Assembly (NCBI GenBank): GCA_016861205.1
Contig: BOKX01000001.1
Location: 698,801-762,800, forward strand
Length of the DNA: 64,000 nt
From: Patescibacteria group bacterium
GTDB taxonomy: Bacteria; Patescibacteriota; Microgenomatia; UBA1400; PJMF01
Direction of reading: 5' to 3'
Shown here: positions 18,342-26,858 of the stretch, piece by piece
Numbering within the stretch: the stretch's first letter is position 1
Layout: every line of letters begins with the position of its first letter
Program-made: the position numbers and the translations under genes
Notes under the pieces: model-generated
Seen by the model: only the letters and a program-made list of their open reading frames with translations
Databases searched by the model: none
What the model was told of the DNA's origin: nothing

Positions 18342-18388
18342 GGTCGCATAGTCTCAGTTGGTTAGAGCGCTCGATTCACATTCGAGAG
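18342..18388 (+). pseudogene. 5' half of a disrupted tRNA-Val(CAC) gene (acceptor/D-arm/anticodon arm)
   Basis: GGTCGCA-TA-G(T)CTC-AGTTGGTTA-GAGC-G-CTCGA-TTCACAT-TCGAG-AG, then non-tRNA sequence. The matching 3' half is at 24976-25003. Confidence 0.7.
18378..18388 (+). repeat. Direct repeat ACATTCGAGAG (left junction / att core)
   Basis: An identical 11-mer recurs at 24965-24975, directly abutting the tRNA 3' half. Confidence 0.7.
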
Positions 18389-18458
18389 TTCGAACACTCC
18401 ACCCACATTCGTGAGTCCGAGTACTGAGGCAATGCAGCCAAGAGTCAAAAAAGAATGA

Positions 18459-18535
18459 GGTCAATTAGCTCAGTTGGTTAGAGCGCGCGATTCACATTCG
18501 CGAGGTCACAAGTTCGAGTCTTGTATTGACCACCA
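18459..18535 (+). tRNA. tRNA-Val (anticodon CAC), element-borne intact copy
   Basis: GGTCAAT acceptor, D-loop AGTTGGTTA, anticodon loop TTCACAT, T-loop TTCGAGT, CCA encoded. Differs from the split host copy by compensatory stem changes. Confidence 0.85.
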
Positions 18536-18650: not shown

Positions 18651-19664
18651 GTGACCTGGCAGAAACCAGTCATGCAGTATTTTCAAGGTCAATACCTTGA
18701 CCAACTAACACAGGAATGTGTTCAGTGGTATGTCCTCAATGGGCATCCACACCTCACAATTAAAAACCTCAAGAACTTTTTGGGGCGTTTTCTTATTTGG
18801 CTGAACGGCCGCGAACTCACAGTAAAAGAATGTCGAGAGTATGTTAAATACATGCAACTGAGAATCAAGCAATCATCAGCTGCTAGCGACACGGGTAGAT
18901 TACAAATGTTTCTGAAATGGTTGCACTACGAGAAGGACCTAACAGAACACGATTGGTCAAAAGATGTAAGAAGACCTAAACAAAAGGGTTCCCAAAAGCC
19001 ACCAGAAATGCTTTTAGCTCCAGAGAAATTGATTGAGTATATTAACCAAGTTACAGAGCCAGGTGAACATGACCATGCGTTGCACCGAGTGGCAAAAAAG
19101 GAGCATCGTGAATTCCTGCATTTTTACTGCCGAATGGGTTTGCGTCCAAATGAAGCTATCAAGATTAAACCTGAGCATGTGAATTTAGATGGTAACCCGC
19201 CCAGCGTGATGATTCTAAGAAAAGGTGGAAAATGGCGAAGTATAGGTTTACCTCTGGATTACCTTGAACCCATCCGAGAAAGAGTGAATAAAGGCCAATG
19301 GTTTAAGGTTTCACAAACTACACTTCAAAGGTACATGCGACAAATATCCAAACTAGCAGGCAGAGAAGTAAAATTGTACTCAATTAGAAAAAGTGTTGAC
19401 ACCTTTATGCTGGATGCTGGGGCACCAATTATGTTGGCTGCTGAGCATCAGGGACATACAGTTGCCATCATGCAAAAGGACTATGTCAAGTTTTCAGCAA
19501 AACAATCTAGCGAGGTCAACAATACCTACAACCCCTATATTGAACGTGGCAAGTTGCCAATTGAATACATGCTGCCTCACATCGACCAATTTGCCGAGAA
19601 GGTAAAAAAGCACCCAAAGTTTAAGGTGGAAAGAAACGAAAACAGCCTAGTTATACGATGGTAA
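18651..19664 (+). CDS. Tyrosine site-specific recombinase / integrase
   Basis: C-terminal catalytic domain motifs: 'GLRPNEAIKI' (Arg box), 'KGGKWRSIGL', 'YSIRKS', 'GHTVAIMQKDYVKF' (His...Tyr nucleophile region). Confidence 0.8.
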   Translation: MTWQKPVMQYFQGQYLDQLTQECVQWYVLNGHPHLTIKNLKNFLGRFLIWLNGRELTVKECREYVKYMQLRIKQSSAASDTGRLQMFLKWLHYEKDLTEHDWSKDVRRPKQKGSQKPPEMLLAPEKLIEYINQVTEPGEHDHALHRVAKKEHREFLHFYCRMGLRPNEAIKIKPEHVNLDGNPPSVMILRKGGKWRSIGLPLDYLEPIRERVNKGQWFKVSQTTLQRYMRQISKLAGREVKLYSIRKSVDTFMLDAGAPIMLAAEHQGHTVAIMQKDYVKFSAKQSSEVNNTYNPYIERGKLPIEYMLPHIDQFAEKVKKHPKFKVERNENSLVIRW

Positions 19665-20317
19665 GTACTATAATCAACGTAGCTATGTATCCTATTCACA
19701 TTTTTGATAAAGGTGGAAAGTCAATTTTCCGTAAGTACAACGAAGACACACTAAGAACAATTTATAGTGCTTCGAAGCTGGGAGCTAATTATGAAGTTTT
19801 CGTCTTGGTTGAAGGACTTATTTTCATGGCTATATTGAGCTACTACACACTGAGAGGTGAGGTTCAAGAGTACTTTGATTTCCTCTTTCAAGAACCAATG
19901 CCTGGGTTAGGCGCAGGTATCAACAAACTCAAGAAGTTACAAATTCTCGAAGACTTGCTAGAGGAAATTGAAGCATATAAAAAAGCAAGAAACGCATTTG
20001 CTCATGACCCTTTTCGGTTAAAGGCTATGGTGTTTACTGACTATCACGTCTCAGAAGAGTGTGAACGGCTTTTTGAGCAAGGAATGTTATTGCTTAATAA
20101 GCTTAGTCCTTTGGTACAGCCAGGATTTCCGACAATGGACGAGTATAAGAGGCGGTTTAAAGGAACTATTCCAGGGAACAACTTCGAAATTAAACCAACT
20201 CAAGCACTTCAGCAAGTCTTGGAAAAGCGACGTCGCGCATACTTAGAGATACCCAATGCGAAAAACAAGAGAAACCTTGAAATAATTGTCTCCGCGTTGG
20301 AGAAAGAGACCAGTTAA
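19658..20317 (+). CDS. HEPN-like protein (Rx4H motif), possible Abi/toxin RNase
   Basis: All-alpha protein with 'KKARNAFAHD' matching the HEPN R-x4-H catalytic motif. Start overlaps the integrase stop. Confidence 0.45.
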   Translation: MVSTIINVAMYPIHIFDKGGKSIFRKYNEDTLRTIYSASKLGANYEVFVLVEGLIFMAILSYYTLRGEVQEYFDFLFQEPMPGLGAGINKLKKLQILEDLLEEIEAYKKARNAFAHDPFRLKAMVFTDYHVSEECERLFEQGMLLLNKLSPLVQPGFPTMDEYKRRFKGTIPGNNFEIKPTQALQQVLEKRRRAYLEIPNAKNKRNLEIIVSALEKETS

Positions 20318-21138: not shown

Positions 21139-21585
21139 TCAGGTAGAGGTACCTGAAACTGTAGCGGGGGGGGTGGGTTGTGTTAGTGCCAACCTTTCTG
21201 CCATTTGAGTATGGTGAAGGTATCGCTTGAACCGACGTGTGGCCTGCCCTTTGTGAAATAGTTTGACCTGTTTAGAACCGTTAAAAACGGCTTCAGCTTT
21301 GTCGATGTGGTCTAGCAGACTCCAGAGTTGGCGGGAACTGCCACTCAACCCCTGTGACTGGTAAGTTAGGTGTAAGCAAGTTCGACATTTAGGTGGTTTG
21401 CTGCCATCCACTTGGTACAATGCAGTTACTCTTTTCCCACATGAGCACAAAAACCAGAAACGCCGACCGCCAAAGTATGGGAAAGTCGTATCGAACTTAA
21501 CACCATACCTGTACTTAGCTACAGTTGGTTCAGGGAATTCACTGATTTTAATTTTGGGAGTGGTTTCAACGACGCTTTTCTTCAT
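21139..21585 (-). CDS. Hypothetical Zn-ribbon protein
   Basis: CxC...CxxC ('CSCGKRV...CRTC') cluster. Contains a G8/C8 homopolymer near the 3' end of the CDS. Confidence 0.4.
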   Translation of the reverse strand: MKKSVVETTPKIKISEFPEPTVAKYRYGVKFDTTFPYFGGRRFWFLCSCGKRVTALYQVDGSKPPKCRTCLHLTYQSQGLSGSSRQLWSLLDHIDKAEAVFNGSKQVKLFHKGQATRRFKRYLHHTQMAERLALTQPTPPATVSGTST

Positions 21586-22212: not shown

Positions 22213-22443
22213 ATGAGGCAATACAATCCCCCTGACCAAATATTAAGGAGAAAATTCGGAATACGTGTCCGCGAGCTAAGAAAAAAACTTGGGTTATCAC
22301 AGGAGGAGCTTGGCTTTAAGGCAAATATTCACCGCACATACGTTGGTGCTGTGGAGCGAGGCGAACAGAACGTGTCATTAGACAATATTGGTCGCTTAGC
22401 AAAATACCTCAAGGTGACACTTTCGGAGTTGTTTAATCTTTAG
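22213..22443 (+). CDS. XRE-family (Cro/CI-type) HTH transcriptional regulator
   Basis: 'IRVRELRKKLGLSQEELGFKANIHRTYVGAVERGE' is a classic HTH_3 signature. Divergent from the two small minus-strand genes. Confidence 0.8.
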   Translation: MRQYNPPDQILRRKFGIRVRELRKKLGLSQEELGFKANIHRTYVGAVERGEQNVSLDNIGRLAKYLKVTLSELFNL

Positions 22444-22507
22444 ATGTCTTTTCACCTATCATAAACTGTCCGACACAGTCACATGATGGCGTATTATAAT
22501 CGGCCGT

Positions 22508-23704
22508 ATGGCTAAACTTTTATCTGAGCCAACATTCATTCCAAAATTCCTTGACGGGGCAATTCTCAGTTCCGGCGTTGGATTTTCTCATTTCTTGATT
22601 GATGCACACTATTTGTTCTTTCGCAGTGAACTCTTTCAACAAACTCGGGAGCAATTTCCCAGTGTTATTATTGACCCAGTCACACATGGGCTTCAGTTCC
22701 AGAACACATACGAAAAACCAACATTTCAACAACTCCCGTATTCATCGGTCACTGACATTCAAAGAGTAATATCTGACCCCACCTACCGGCTTAATTCCTT
22801 AGTTGTACCTGTTATTGATTTTCAGGTGACAAACCAAGCCGCTTTCATTATTGCCCCATATCTCTGCACTGATGATGTAAACAGTACCATCTTCAGTAAC
22901 AATTTAACTATGCTCGGTGAAACGTTGTATATCCTTAATGGGAGAGACTCACAACCACCATTACTGGCTCCAATTTGCATTGGTGGAAACGTCTTACGTG
23001 ACAGGCGGCTAACCGATTATATTATTGACTGCTATAAAGCAGAACCTTTCCATTCTGCGGTTCAGGGTTACTTTATTATTATGGTCACCGATTTTGACGA
23101 CCGACTCGCAGACGAAGACCAACTGCTAGGCTTAGCTGATATAACCTACCAACTTTCTCAAGACAAAGATGTAATAATCAATCATCTGGGTGGTTTCGGT
23201 GAAGTATTAAATGCAATTGGGGCCTCCGCATTTGTTAGCTCTCCCGGAGGTGGTGAAACTTTCTCACTAAAACAGCTTCAACAAGATTCAAAAAACATTC
23301 GTGGTCGGAACCACAGCCTCTGGAGATATGTCCCGGAACTGTTCGACTATATCAGTGAAGATTTACTTGGCCCCGAGGAAATTAATTATAGATGTGATTG
23401 TGCTGGGTGCGCTAATGCTGGCACATTTCCCTCTGTTTATGCAGCGAGAAAAATTCATTTCCTAATCAAAAGAATGGCAGCCATCCAACTTACCACGGGC
23501 ATGTCTCGTGATGAAAAAATTCAGAATTTAATTCAGAGACTTTCAGCTGCAGAGTCTCTTGCCAGGGGTTATGTGGTAAATCTCGGTGCAGATATCAAAG
23601 TAGCTCATTTGACAAAATGGCGCAGGATTCTAGAAATCTCTAGAGGGTGGAATTACCAACAAGACGATGATGAGCTTGAAAGATTACTGCAAGAACTTGG
23701 TTGA
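22508..23704 (+). CDS. tRNA-guanine transglycosylase (TGT)-fold protein, DpdA-like candidate DNA/RNA base-exchange enzyme
   Basis: Order and spacing of TGT hallmarks: 'IDFQV' (Asp-x-FQV), 'HLGGFGE' (GGLxxGE) near residue 230, 'ELFDYI' (MFDCV-like catalytic Asp) near 280, and a Zn site 'CDCAGC...H' near 296-317. Confidence 0.5.
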   Translation: MAKLLSEPTFIPKFLDGAILSSGVGFSHFLIDAHYLFFRSELFQQTREQFPSVIIDPVTHGLQFQNTYEKPTFQQLPYSSVTDIQRVISDPTYRLNSLVVPVIDFQVTNQAAFIIAPYLCTDDVNSTIFSNNLTMLGETLYILNGRDSQPPLLAPICIGGNVLRDRRLTDYIIDCYKAEPFHSAVQGYFIIMVTDFDDRLADEDQLLGLADITYQLSQDKDVIINHLGGFGEVLNAIGASAFVSSPGGGETFSLKQLQQDSKNIRGRNHSLWRYVPELFDYISEDLLGPEEINYRCDCAGCANAGTFPSVYAARKIHFLIKRMAAIQLTTGMSRDEKIQNLIQRLSAAESLARGYVVNLGADIKVAHLTKWRRILEISRGWNYQQDDDELERLLQELG

Positions 23705-24171
23705 TTATTATGATTCAAATCATACCTGATACTAACATTCTCGTGTCTGGCATGATGGGTTATAAGACTCCGGCAAGGCAAATCCTCAACCTTTCTCTAG
23801 CTAAAAAAATCCAGCTACTCGGATGTAGTCACACACTAGCAGAATTTACAGCTAAAGTTAATTTGCCTAGAATGAAAAAGTACTGGCAAAAAAAGTATTT
23901 CTCGCCGGATAAAATTATTCAGGACTACCAAACAATGGTTATTATGCATGAGCCAACCCCGCTCTACTTAGACACTGTCATACCAATTAGGGACCCAAAA
24001 GATGCAATTTTTTTTCAACTAGCCTTAAGTAGCAGATGCAAAATCATTATTTCTAATGACCAGGATGCTTTAGTGTTAAGTGGACATCAGGGAATAAAGG
24101 TTGTCACACCGGAAGTTTTCATCGAAGCATACTATAGAGTGAACCCCGTTCAATTGGAAAGTGCATCATAA
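23701..24171 (+). CDS. PIN-domain nuclease (TA-toxin-like)
   Basis: N-terminal 'IPDTNIL' plus 'IRDPKDAIF' and 'ISNDQD' acidic residues of the PIN fold. ATG overlaps the stop of the TGT-like gene (ATGA coupling). Confidence 0.65.
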   Translation: MIIMIQIIPDTNILVSGMMGYKTPARQILNLSLAKKIQLLGCSHTLAEFTAKVNLPRMKKYWQKKYFSPDKIIQDYQTMVIMHEPTPLYLDTVIPIRDPKDAIFFQLALSSRCKIIISNDQDALVLSGHQGIKVVTPEVFIEAYYRVNPVQLESAS

Positions 24172-24857
24172 AGAAACAACTCTGAAACAAAATTGCGCTT
24201 GTCTTGCTTTGCTTTATCTTGAGACTTCGGGCAGATGATTTCCTCTACGTTTTTGCCATCCTCAGACAGGATAAATAATCCCACATTTTGTCTAGCCAAG
24301 ATTTCATCATCAACCAAATGACGGTACTGAGCCAAAATAGCCAAATATGTTTTATCAGCAAAATATTTGTACCTGTTTGCTTGAATGAATCCACGTCTCC
24401 AATCTCTTAATTTTGCTTCAATGGCTATCATTTCGCTCACAAGTGGAACCCAACCGTTAACTTTATAGTAATAATTATCATCAATTTTCTTGACGTATCC
24501 GTTGTCTTCTAACTCCCTCAACAAATGATATTTTAGGTAACTTTTACTTACGGGAACAGATTGAACCAACTCATCAATACCTCTTGGCGGCAGTTTCTTT
24601 CTGTCATCGATGTCCGGTAATTGTCGCAGTACCTGGAAAAAGTTTTCCTTAAGGAGAGGTGTCACTTGCTTGCGTTTCTTTCGTATGGCACATTTCTTCG
24701 GATTCAACTTAACCAAAACAAGGTCAGCCCTACCGTAACCGGCACTAACCTCTTGCCTTACCAAAAATCCTTGGTTTGAAAAATGCCTCGCAAGGTAACG
24801 AACCATTGTGAGTTCATCCATAGTCTTAGTATACCTAATTTTTCTGACAGCCAGCAA
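24150..24857 (-). CDS. Hypothetical protein with predicted winged-helix segment
   Basis: 235-aa basic protein. 'SKSYLKYHLLRELEDNGYVKKIDDNYYYKV' is wHTH-like. No confident catalytic motif. Confidence 0.4.
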   Translation of the reverse strand: MLAVRKIRYTKTMDELTMVRYLARHFSNQGFLVRQEVSAGYGRADLVLVKLNPKKCAIRKKRKQVTPLLKENFFQVLRQLPDIDDRKKLPPRGIDELVQSVPVSKSYLKYHLLRELEDNGYVKKIDDNYYYKVNGWVPLVSEMIAIEAKLRDWRRGFIQANRYKYFADKTYLAILAQYRHLVDDEILARQNVGLFILSEDGKNVEEIICPKSQDKAKQDKRNFVSELFLYDALSN

Positions 24858-24964: not shown

Positions 24965-24975
24965 ACATTCGAGAG
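24965..24975 (+). repeat. Direct repeat ACATTCGAGAG (right junction / att core)
   Basis: Identical to 18378-18388. Confidence 0.7.
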
Positions 24976-25003
24976 GTCCCAGGTTCGAGTCCTGGTGCGA
25001 CCA
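24976..25003 (+). pseudogene. 3' half of the disrupted tRNA-Val(CAC) gene (variable loop, T-arm, acceptor 3' strand)
   Basis: GTC-CCAGG-TTCGAGT-CCTGG-TGCGACC-A. TGCGACC is the exact complement of the GGTCGCA acceptor at 18342. Confidence 0.7.
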
Positions 25004-25055
25004 CCCACCCCACTTTTGCAAGCCACACGCAAGCTTTCTCCTCTATAACAAAACC

Positions 25056-26370: not shown

Positions 26371-26858
26371 CCACACCAAAATAAGGTGGAGATGAGGAGG
26401 AATGACCTCCTGTCCGCAACCGCGACTCCAGCATCATCTACAGACATAGTTACTTCTTGGTGTAGTTAGGTCGGTAAAGCAACCAGCCGTTTCCTAACCC
26501 CGTCGATGAATTGTCTTGGGTTACTTGGCATCAACAGACCAAGCAACTGTCACAGTGACTGTGTTGAACACCCATTCCCGACCGCCACTGAGAATCGAAG
26601 AATGAATGCTTGTTTACGCTAAAGCGTAAGCCAAGTCTTGGTTGTCACCAGCCACAAAAGCGACTAGTTTGTTCCAAGCTTTACTGAGCGTATTGCCAGT
26701 TAGTTTTTTGACCCTGTTTTACCTCGCGTGAGTCAACGAGCGTCTGCAGATGTTAAAGTGCGTATCACGTCAAAGCAATACATCCCCTATAGCCTATATT
26801 ATAGCTCATCGGGGCAAGTTTTTAAAGGTTTTTAGCCTGGAGAACTAAGATACCATCC

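Follow-up and report, generated by a model that had tools for sequence, protein, structure and literature searches.

We describe here a nuclease-associated module carried by an integrative element within a 64,000-nucleotide stretch of contig BOKX01000001.1 (positions 698,801 to 762,800) from a Patescibacteria group bacterium (assembly GCA_016861205.1), which we refer to throughout as the window. The central product of this module, a 398-aa protein that we term A, is a TIM barrel that contains zinc and derives from the tRNA/DNA-guanine transglycosylase superfamily, yet it appears from residue alignments to have lost both the aspartate (Asp) of covalent catalysis and the Asp that reads guanine, and not to be a canonical tRNA-guanine transglycosylase (TGT) or DpdA. 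In a comparison with related loci (designated by L-numbers), A is accompanied by the product of a convergent nuclease gene, C, in every sampled architecture except two distant standalone branches, while a third component is exchangeable, being a PIN gene, a kinase joined to A in one protein, or a DUF3800 gene of RNase H-like type. Since A and C persist while the third part varies, the core of the module consists of A plus C. A preliminary description of the locus had proposed an operon composed of an XRE regulator, a DpdA-like base-exchange enzyme and a coupled PIN nuclease. All three of these open reading frames (ORFs) are present on the forward strand (Table 1), and the module is indeed element-borne, undescribed and devoid of genes for deazapurine synthesis. 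However, the interpretation offered is right at the level of the fold and wrong at the level of the enzyme, and the nuclease gene at 24150-24806 should be counted within the bounds of the finding.

Searches with A itself returned no match at E <= 1 in Pfam, NCBIfam, PHROGs or PADLOC, and no match in the PDB by sequence, whether A alone or a close-family profile was used. Its homologues form 30 clusters at 34-64% identity (~395-410 aa), none of them annotated, and no cluster member carries a name in the source annotations. A wider profile search against 1.84 billion representatives recovered a family of 658 representatives at E <= 1e-3 (counted at 50% identity), while tblastn of A against annotated phage genomes found nothing and against plasmids gave two distant matches only. 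One close-family member, P0091 (466 aa), bears an N-terminal DnaA_N domain and the start of a DnaA ATPase domain fused to A, and may be a chimera of assembly or gene calling, or an insertion into dnaA.

The affiliation of A emerges from structure prediction and profile comparison. The family alignment yielded a confident AlphaFold2 model (predicted local distance difference test score (pLDDT) 88.8, predicted template modelling score 0.87), a (beta/alpha)8 barrel with TGT-type insertions that lies nearer to TGTs than to other TIM barrels, and tRNA-guanine transglycosylases account for every one of the top 11 PDB matches obtained with Foldseek (E 1.6e-6 to 5e-4), in agreement with the fold originally proposed. 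Moreover, profile-profile comparison with a 9-sequence bacterial TGT profile, assembled from matches in a phage collection, yields E 9e-5 in local mode and E 5e-6 over 312 columns; the broad A profile against the single Escherichia coli TGT sequence reaches a probability of 5.8% in hhalign. By sequence, the broad profile also reaches archaeosine TGT (arcTGT) exactly at the zinc site (E 0.0046). Here the ligands C296, C298, C301 and H317 of A align to C279/C281/C284/H307 of arcTGT and C302/C304/C307/H333 of E. coli TGT, are invariant in 29/29 close homologues, and are conserved at >=83% per ligand in each wider subgroup, with a spacing to the His of 15 residues in A compared to 22-25 in known TGT members. 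The CxCxxC...H motif of A is the TGT zinc site, as the preliminary description had recognised.

The catalytic residues present a different picture. Three active-site Asp, serving as general acid/base, base reader and nucleophile, are invariant in TGT and DpdA, and mutation of the first or the last abolishes DpdA activity, according to PMC10164549. In the alignment of A with TGT, the general acid/base of the motif ILTD89S (D89 in E. coli, D102 in Zymomonas mobilis, D95 in DpdA) corresponds to D56 of A in VIID56P, although this pairing is obtained in full-length hhalign comparisons with low per-column confidence and is absent from the alignment of the close family only. Positioned where a barrel strand ends, D56 is conserved in 61/75, 22/22 and 23/27 members of three subgroups, and is the sole acidic residue conserved across the whole A family. 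By contrast, the base-reading Asp of the FD143EC loop (D143 in E. coli, D156 in Z. mobilis, D130 in DpdA) has no equivalent, falling within a 5-residue gap opposite IIA-PY, and we found no conserved acidic residue after the base-reading strand in the A alignment. The nucleophile of DMFD264CV (D264 in E. coli, D280 in Z. mobilis, D256 in DpdA) is matched by V243 in the segment SAFV243SS of A, a position that varies among I, S, V and T.

The register of this mapping depends on the subset of sequences used. When hhalign is run with the close group alone or with the kinase group alone, probabilities of 5-9% are obtained and another register appears at strand 8; in this low-probability alternative, for the close family alone, S253 takes the position of the nucleophile and E250 lies opposite TGT D261. 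Of the two registers we retained the one given above, which is consistent with where the AlphaFold2 model places strands and helices; neither supplies an acidic nucleophile. With two of the three invariant Asp absent, A therefore lacks features that define DpdA/TGT base-exchange enzymes; nor does any TGT or DpdA hidden Markov model match it, and a role as an exchanger of guanine or 7-deazaguanine is unlikely.

The motifs on which the enzymatic assignment had been founded are all in place in A (IDFQV at 103-107, HLGGFGE at 226-232, ELFDYI at 277-282 and C296-x-C298-xx-C301...H317), but the assignments given to three of the four are not supported. D104 of the supposed Asp motif IDFQV is variable among relatives; HLGGFGE, likened to the substrate pocket GGLAVGE, is paired by profile-profile alignment with TGT YLMGVGKP, on the next strand over; and the TGT catalytic block MFDCV, likened to ELFDYI, pairs instead with AFVSS, ELFDYI lying within the hairpin before the zinc site. 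Conservation among homologues likewise bears out the zinc ligands, which are invariant in the close family, and not the proposed catalytic D280, which is Asp in 33/76 close relatives and T, Q or S elsewhere. The case offers a caution, in that a correct fold call and a correct zinc motif did not make A a DpdA-type enzyme.

Conservation across the A family is nevertheless extensive, encompassing D56-P57-x-T59, L76-P77-Y78, Q106, P117, G187, L216, G231, L234, G238, position 245 (mostly Gly), Y274 and W371, with Y118 mostly aromatic. Several of these residues (D56/T59, P117/Y118, G231 and G245) are situated at or just past the C-terminal ends of barrel strands, and a functional pocket is therefore preserved.

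The constant partner of A had been noted only as a flanking winged helix-turn-helix (HTH) protein. The winged helix is real, as an insert of ~80 residues in C matches those of the MarR/ArsR type, but C is no bystander. An alignment of 38 sequences shows D28, E130-x-K132, Q142, R145 and Y146 without variation, and an AlphaFold2 model (pLDDT 95.1) adopts a restriction-endonuclease-like fold that matches the nuclease folds of PaqCI, NucS, Can2 and HindIII. By its nuclease motif and its modelled fold, both of them intact, C belongs to the PD-(D/E)xK endonucleases. Against PADLOC, C gave a single weak and non-diagnostic match to Csa3 (E 6e-4), which we consider neutral. The gene is convergent to that of the PIN nuclease, with a 3' overlap of 22 nt in the window and of 11-24 nt across close-family loci.

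A, PIN and convergent C are found together in 13/13 distinct close-family loci, that is, those in which the contig extends far enough, all from metagenome-assembled genomes (MAGs) of Patescibacteria type. In more distant relatives, a Ser/Thr kinase fused to A is accompanied by C, in convergent orientation in L019 (a Priestia megaterium plasmid) and L043 and co-directionally in L032 and L042; C followed by A, without a third module, occurs in a prophage-like region (L038); and C, A and then the DUF3800 gene occur in L040, beside RelA_SpoT and Abi_C genes. The A-C pairing is seen in convergent and co-directional arrangements alike, and the partner protein from Priestia is related to C with an hhalign probability of 99.8% (E 3e-29).

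Several further features of these loci deserve mention. A conserved 254-aa gene (L032 4517-5281) comes after the paired kinase-A and C genes on three contigs that are independent of one another (L032-L034), and a fragment of an N6/N4 methyltransferase lies upstream in L032. A second small gene pair in L043, considered as another A-C pair, proved unrelated, and the 192-200-aa genes upstream in L001 and L002, considered as conserved partners, show no family matches and are not conserved. The two branches that stand apart are L035 (1090-3651, P0166-type), in which a distant A-like gene of ~420 aa follows conserved 117-aa and 297-aa genes with no protein C nearby, and which may represent a different system on the same domain; and L020 (4842-7143 of the Rhodococcus antarcticus plasmid NZ_CP110617.1), in which a standalone 401-aa A-like gene adjoins a toxin-antitoxin-type pair of a RES-family NAD+ phosphorylase and an HTH protein, with no protein C within 6 kb.

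The identity of the third component in the window as a PIN-domain nuclease, as originally described, is borne out by profile searches (PIN_3 1.9e-11, 45.3 bits, above the Pfam cut-off of 27; TIGR00305 2.2e-13, 50.5 bits, cut-off 29.15), and 11 orthologues share its acidic residues D(TN), E(F), D..D and S.D without variation. PIN lies directly downstream of A in 13/13 distinct close-family loci, and the gene upstream of PIN is in all loci of the 398-aa TIM-barrel type rather than a small VapB-like antitoxin. The ATGA stop/start coupling that had been claimed for A and PIN is not borne out, as the junction reads ...ctt ggT TGA tta ttA TGa: the A stop (TGA, 23702-23704) overlaps a TTG at 23701, whereas the first ATG for PIN is at 23710, after a gap of 5 nt, and is the start that gene callers chose in further assemblies of this genome (PIN 153 aa). 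Homologous loci show anything between 20 nt of overlap and a 13-nt gap at this junction, and tight linkage holds.

In the kinase-A fusions (~670-700 aa), the N-terminal Ser/Thr kinase is recognised by Pfam at E ~1e-55 and has intact HRD and DFG motifs. Only this kinase part matches PADLOC models, namely PD-T4-6 and mad6 (E down to 5e-73); no model in PADLOC-DB v2 matches A or PIN. DUF3800, which takes the third position in L040, is an RNase H-like domain linked to defence. We found no description in the literature of the combination of A, C and a third-module gene. A kinase-based defence triggered by a tRNA-derived messenger is reported in a 2026 preprint (CASK/Csx33, bioRxiv 10.64898/2026.08.25.746378), whose Csx33 may conceivably be linked to the kinase-A fusions.

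The unit of XRE, TGT and PIN originally proposed does not hold across these loci, given that XRE is limited to one subclade, PIN is replaceable, and the constant partner C lay outside the interval described. XRE occurs upstream of A in the window, L009/L013, L014 and L015 only, and is best seen as an accessory regulator and not as a defining part of the module. It matches the Control_protein models of PADLOC for restriction-modification (R-M) systems at 8e-22. Boxes of the GACT...AGTC type are repeated upstream of XRE in L009/L013, L014 and L015, and the corresponding region of the window holds an AGTC...GACT pair. A promoter scan of the operon returned no more sites than shuffled sequence. 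The spacers between XRE and A in L009 (4634-4693), L014 and L015 contain a TATAAT box, then a GC hairpin and T-run (GCCCC-loop-GGGG-TTTTT) before the start of A, which could be a terminator for XRE or a leader/attenuator for A. No such hairpin is present in the XRE-A spacer of the window, where a promoter-like site, CCGACA-N16-TATTAT, lies ~10 nt before the ATG; its proximity to the start codon hints at a leaderless transcript or one with a very short 5' untranslated region.

Related loci lie in diverse mobile settings, including neighbourhoods of serine recombinases and an excisionase-type HTH protein, a prophage-like region, and plasmids, and also in defence islands. R-M systems are among their neighbours, comprising a BsaWI-type system in L004 and a type I/IIG system flanked by recombinases in L009. 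Among named genome records, the carriers of A are mostly Patescibacteria- or Parcubacteria-type MAGs, and the kinase form occurs in Bacillota.

The explanation for these observations that we consider most likely, though with a little less than even confidence, is that the cargo is a defence-type module, undescribed so far, whose protein A would bind nucleic acid, probably through base flipping, in concert with partner nucleases. Under this hypothesis, the TGT scaffold kept in A would serve nucleic-acid binding, with a flipped-out base held by means of the zinc subdomain, D56 and the aromatic/Gln pocket. Given the apparent loss of the nucleophile and the base-reading Asp, A would most likely be a base-flipping recognition subunit, or at most a simple hydrolytic glycosylase using D56. 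Having detected some feature of invading nucleic acid, perhaps a modified base, it would direct C to cut DNA or license it to do so, while the PIN, kinase or RNase H-like part would add a second arm, either RNA-directed or growth-arresting, and the controller-type XRE would regulate expression in the subclade to which the window belongs. A bolder version, which we regard as unlikely, is that a TGT fold has been turned into the recognition subunit or glycosylase of a new and widespread class of immune system, one that senses, for example, 7-deazaguanine or hypermodified bases and licenses a dedicated PD-(D/E)xK nuclease, the output arms (PIN, kinase or RNase H-like) being interchangeable. If true, this would constitute modification-sensing restriction built on a TIM barrel, present in Patescibacteria, Bacillota and probably other lineages (unclassified metagenome contigs), and the bases inspected would be those that let phages escape ordinary restriction.

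Several points weigh against A as the recognition subunit of a defence system. We infer the defence role from context only, and A-like genes occur without C on the Rhodococcus plasmid (L020) and among other partners in L035. Furthermore, the residue mapping derives from profile alignments at 59-86% probability, with two of the three subfamily alignments below 10%. Candidate non-canonical carboxylates also exist, as E250 is E/D in 74/76 and E277 is E in 71/76 close relatives, and such a residue could restore catalysis in the PIN-linked clade. A real enzyme of new specificity would account for the strong conservation of the pocket just as well.

Three alternative hypotheses may be considered. 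The module could be a compact DpdA-like R-M system, in which A swaps a base as a mark of self, C restricts unmarked DNA, XRE times expression and PIN is an add-on. The retained zinc site would suit such a system, as would the strict co-occurrence of A and C, expected of a modification/restriction pair; the convergent layout and the regulator resembling C proteins in PADLOC (8e-22) recall type II R-M operons, and R-M systems lie close by in L004 and L009. We nevertheless doubt this explanation. Two of the three invariant Asp are absent from A, including the nucleophile, loss of which abolished DpdA activity (PMC10164549), and TGT and DpdA models do not recognise the protein. The loci are also wanting in the genes on which base exchange would draw: no DpdB-like ATPase, DpdC, dpdD-K restriction gene or preQ0 gene was found in the element or in the gene tables of related loci, and no tgt or queA homologue in the 64-kb window, in keeping with the earlier observation that QueC/D/E/F, FolE and DpdB/C are missing, none having been matched among the ORFs of >=100 aa in the element. 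Moreover, the controller precedes A-PIN rather than the nuclease and is absent from most loci, and a Ser/Thr kinase fusion is unexpected for a modification enzyme of housekeeping style.

VapC-type PIN toxins often cleave tRNA, and TIGR00305, the family matched by PIN, is named as the putative toxin component of a toxin-antitoxin system. In combination with the tight linkage of A to PIN and the kinase-based defence reported in the 2026 preprint, these points speak for a tRNA-directed abortive system, in which A, acting like QTRT2, would bind tRNA anticodon stem-loops or fragments and present them to the PIN RNase or sense its products, sensing would switch on the fused kinase in other loci, and C would act downstream on DNA. 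Yet it is not PIN but a DNA-type nuclease bearing a winged HTH that constantly accompanies A, and the N-terminal lid of tRNA TGTs is missing from A, so that we consider this scenario quite unlikely. The same family name for PIN, along with the match of XRE to antitoxin-type HTH families in NCBIfam and the invariable location of the module on mobile DNA, would also suit an addiction or stabilisation module, with PIN and/or C as toxins and A as a large proteic antidote or regulator, devoted to maintenance of the element and not to phage defence. A is acidic (isoelectric point (pI) 5.0) and PIN and C are basic (pI 9.1 and 9.5), as would be expected of an antidote to basic nucleases, but the acidity of A is like that of ordinary TGTs (median pI 5.7 vs 6.0), and we have dropped this argument since the pI distributions match. 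In addition, A, a zinc TIM barrel of ~400 aa with a conserved pocket, far exceeds typical antitoxins in size and conservation, and PIN is dispensable in other architectures in which A and C persist. An addiction role is accordingly very unlikely.

The element that carries the module measures ~6.6 kb and has a GC content of 0.40-0.45, compared to ~0.50 around it. Besides A, PIN and C it contains its own intact tRNA-Val, an integrase and three small orphan genes, and it breaks the host tRNA-Val at the anticodon loop (Table 1). The low GC, integrase, tRNA-Val and split host tRNA-Val with an attachment (att) repeat uphold the earlier view that an integrase-bearing element is present. Most tRNA-integrating elements restore the 3' end only; the tRNA-Val(CAC) of this element shows 92% identity over a 39-nt repeat, from the D-arm to the anticodon region. 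A gene for transfer-messenger RNA (26384-26787, reverse strand; Rfam 80 bits) is located ~1.4 kb past the attR side. A Dus gene adjoins the end of the related locus L002, as it does in the window, and because both end beside this gene we suggest that they share an integration neighbourhood.

Among the small genes of the element, the ORF at 19658-20317 (forward strand, 219 aa), previously termed HEPN-like, overlaps the integrase stop, and behind its label stands only an R-x4-H string (RNAFAH). It is an orphan whose sole database match is itself, with no family or PDB match, and we have dropped it as a part of the module for want of homologues or structural relatives by sequence. A further ORF at 21139-21585 (reverse strand, 148 aa) contains C-x-C ... 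C-x2-C cysteines reminiscent of a zinc ribbon; it has no family match, and its homologues occur only in assemblies of the same genome.

Table 1 Coordinates of the principal features of the element and its module (window positions)
Feature	Position	Strand	Remarks
Host tRNA-Val 5' half (attL side)	18343..18390	+	Acceptor stem GGTCGCA pairs with TGCGACC 24999-25005
att core repeat ACATTCGAGAG, 14-nt direct repeat	18378-18391 and 24965-24978	+	Both junctions, ACATTCGAGAG(T/G)TC
Intact tRNA-Val(CAC) carried by element	18459..18535	+	ARAGORN; Rfam tRNA 71 bits
Tyrosine integrase	18651..19664	+	Pfam Phage_integrase 1e-07; NCBIfam XerA/XerD-like
XRE-family HTH regulator	22213..22443	+	76 aa; HTH_3 5e-17, above Pfam cut-off
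Protein A, divergent TGT-superfamily zinc TIM-barrel protein	22508..23704	+	398 aa
PIN_3 nuclease	23710..24171	+	153 aa from ATG; alternative TTG start 23701 overlapping A stop
Protein C, predicted PD-(D/E)xK endonuclease with inserted winged helix	24150..24806	-	218 aa; ORF reaches TTG at 24857
Host tRNA-Val 3' half (attR side)	24965..25006	+	Begins with att core repeat

The TGT fold is so far known from only a few roles in conflict, namely DNA modification by DpdA, nucleobase-protein conjugation by Cap10, and a recently predicted case related to bacteriophage exclusion (BREX), and the role of the A family would be a fourth, quite unlike these three. The clade formed by A is large, unrecognised by profile libraries, and tied to a dedicated endonuclease and swappable effectors. 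If it is a defence system, it would represent a new type of sensor or enzyme, and would extend what little is known of immunity in the genome-reduced Patescibacteria. The version on the Priestia megaterium plasmid has a culturable host and offers an experimentally tractable entry point.

Compared with its relatives of known function, A is distinguished by what it keeps and what it has lost. DpdA (PDB 7UI4) keeps D95, D130 and D256 and needs the DpdB ATPase and preQ0, whereas A appears to keep the first Asp only. Bacterial TGTs (Z. mobilis 3UNT, E. coli Tgt) share ~13% identity with A, which is without the FDEC loop, the nucleophile Asp (V/S/I/T) and the N-terminal lid, and has extra C-terminal helices with the conserved W371; they are housekeeping genes, in contrast to A, a mobile-element gene with nuclease partners. 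QTRT2 (6FV5), the non-catalytic subunit of the eukaryotic TGT, partners a catalytic TGT paralogue, and none is encoded in the A loci. Cap10, from type IV cyclic-oligonucleotide-based antiphage signalling systems (9NTN), shows the opposite pattern to A: it keeps the base-reading residues and the nucleophile Asp (D73, S74, D122 and D248) but no longer has the zinc site, its substrate being a protein N-terminus, while A has kept the zinc site and lost the nucleophile, and is partnered neither by Cap9/QueC nor by a CD-NTase. According to the Cap10 paper, nucleic-acid binding is stabilised by the TGT zinc site, which was lost in Cap10 upon its switch to a protein substrate.

At the level of the whole module, McrBC-like type IV systems and others that join a reader domain to a PD-(D/E)xK nuclease likewise combine a part that recognises bases, probably by flipping them out, with such a nuclease in defence islands and on mobile elements. 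This is a functional analogy only, as A-C is without a GTPase or AAA+ motor, and a reader derived from a TGT TIM barrel is undescribed among those systems. Type II R-M operons with C proteins share with the module the match of the 76-aa XRE, the GACT/AGTC boxes (in relatives) and convergent genes, but the A module has no methyltransferase, and its regulator stands before A-PIN, not before the endonuclease, and is absent from most loci. Finally, the kinase-A fusions share an N-terminal Ser/Thr kinase with the single-gene defences PD-T4-6, Stk2 and mad6, and differ from them in a C-terminal TGT-like domain that lies outside those models and in the presence of C as a second gene.

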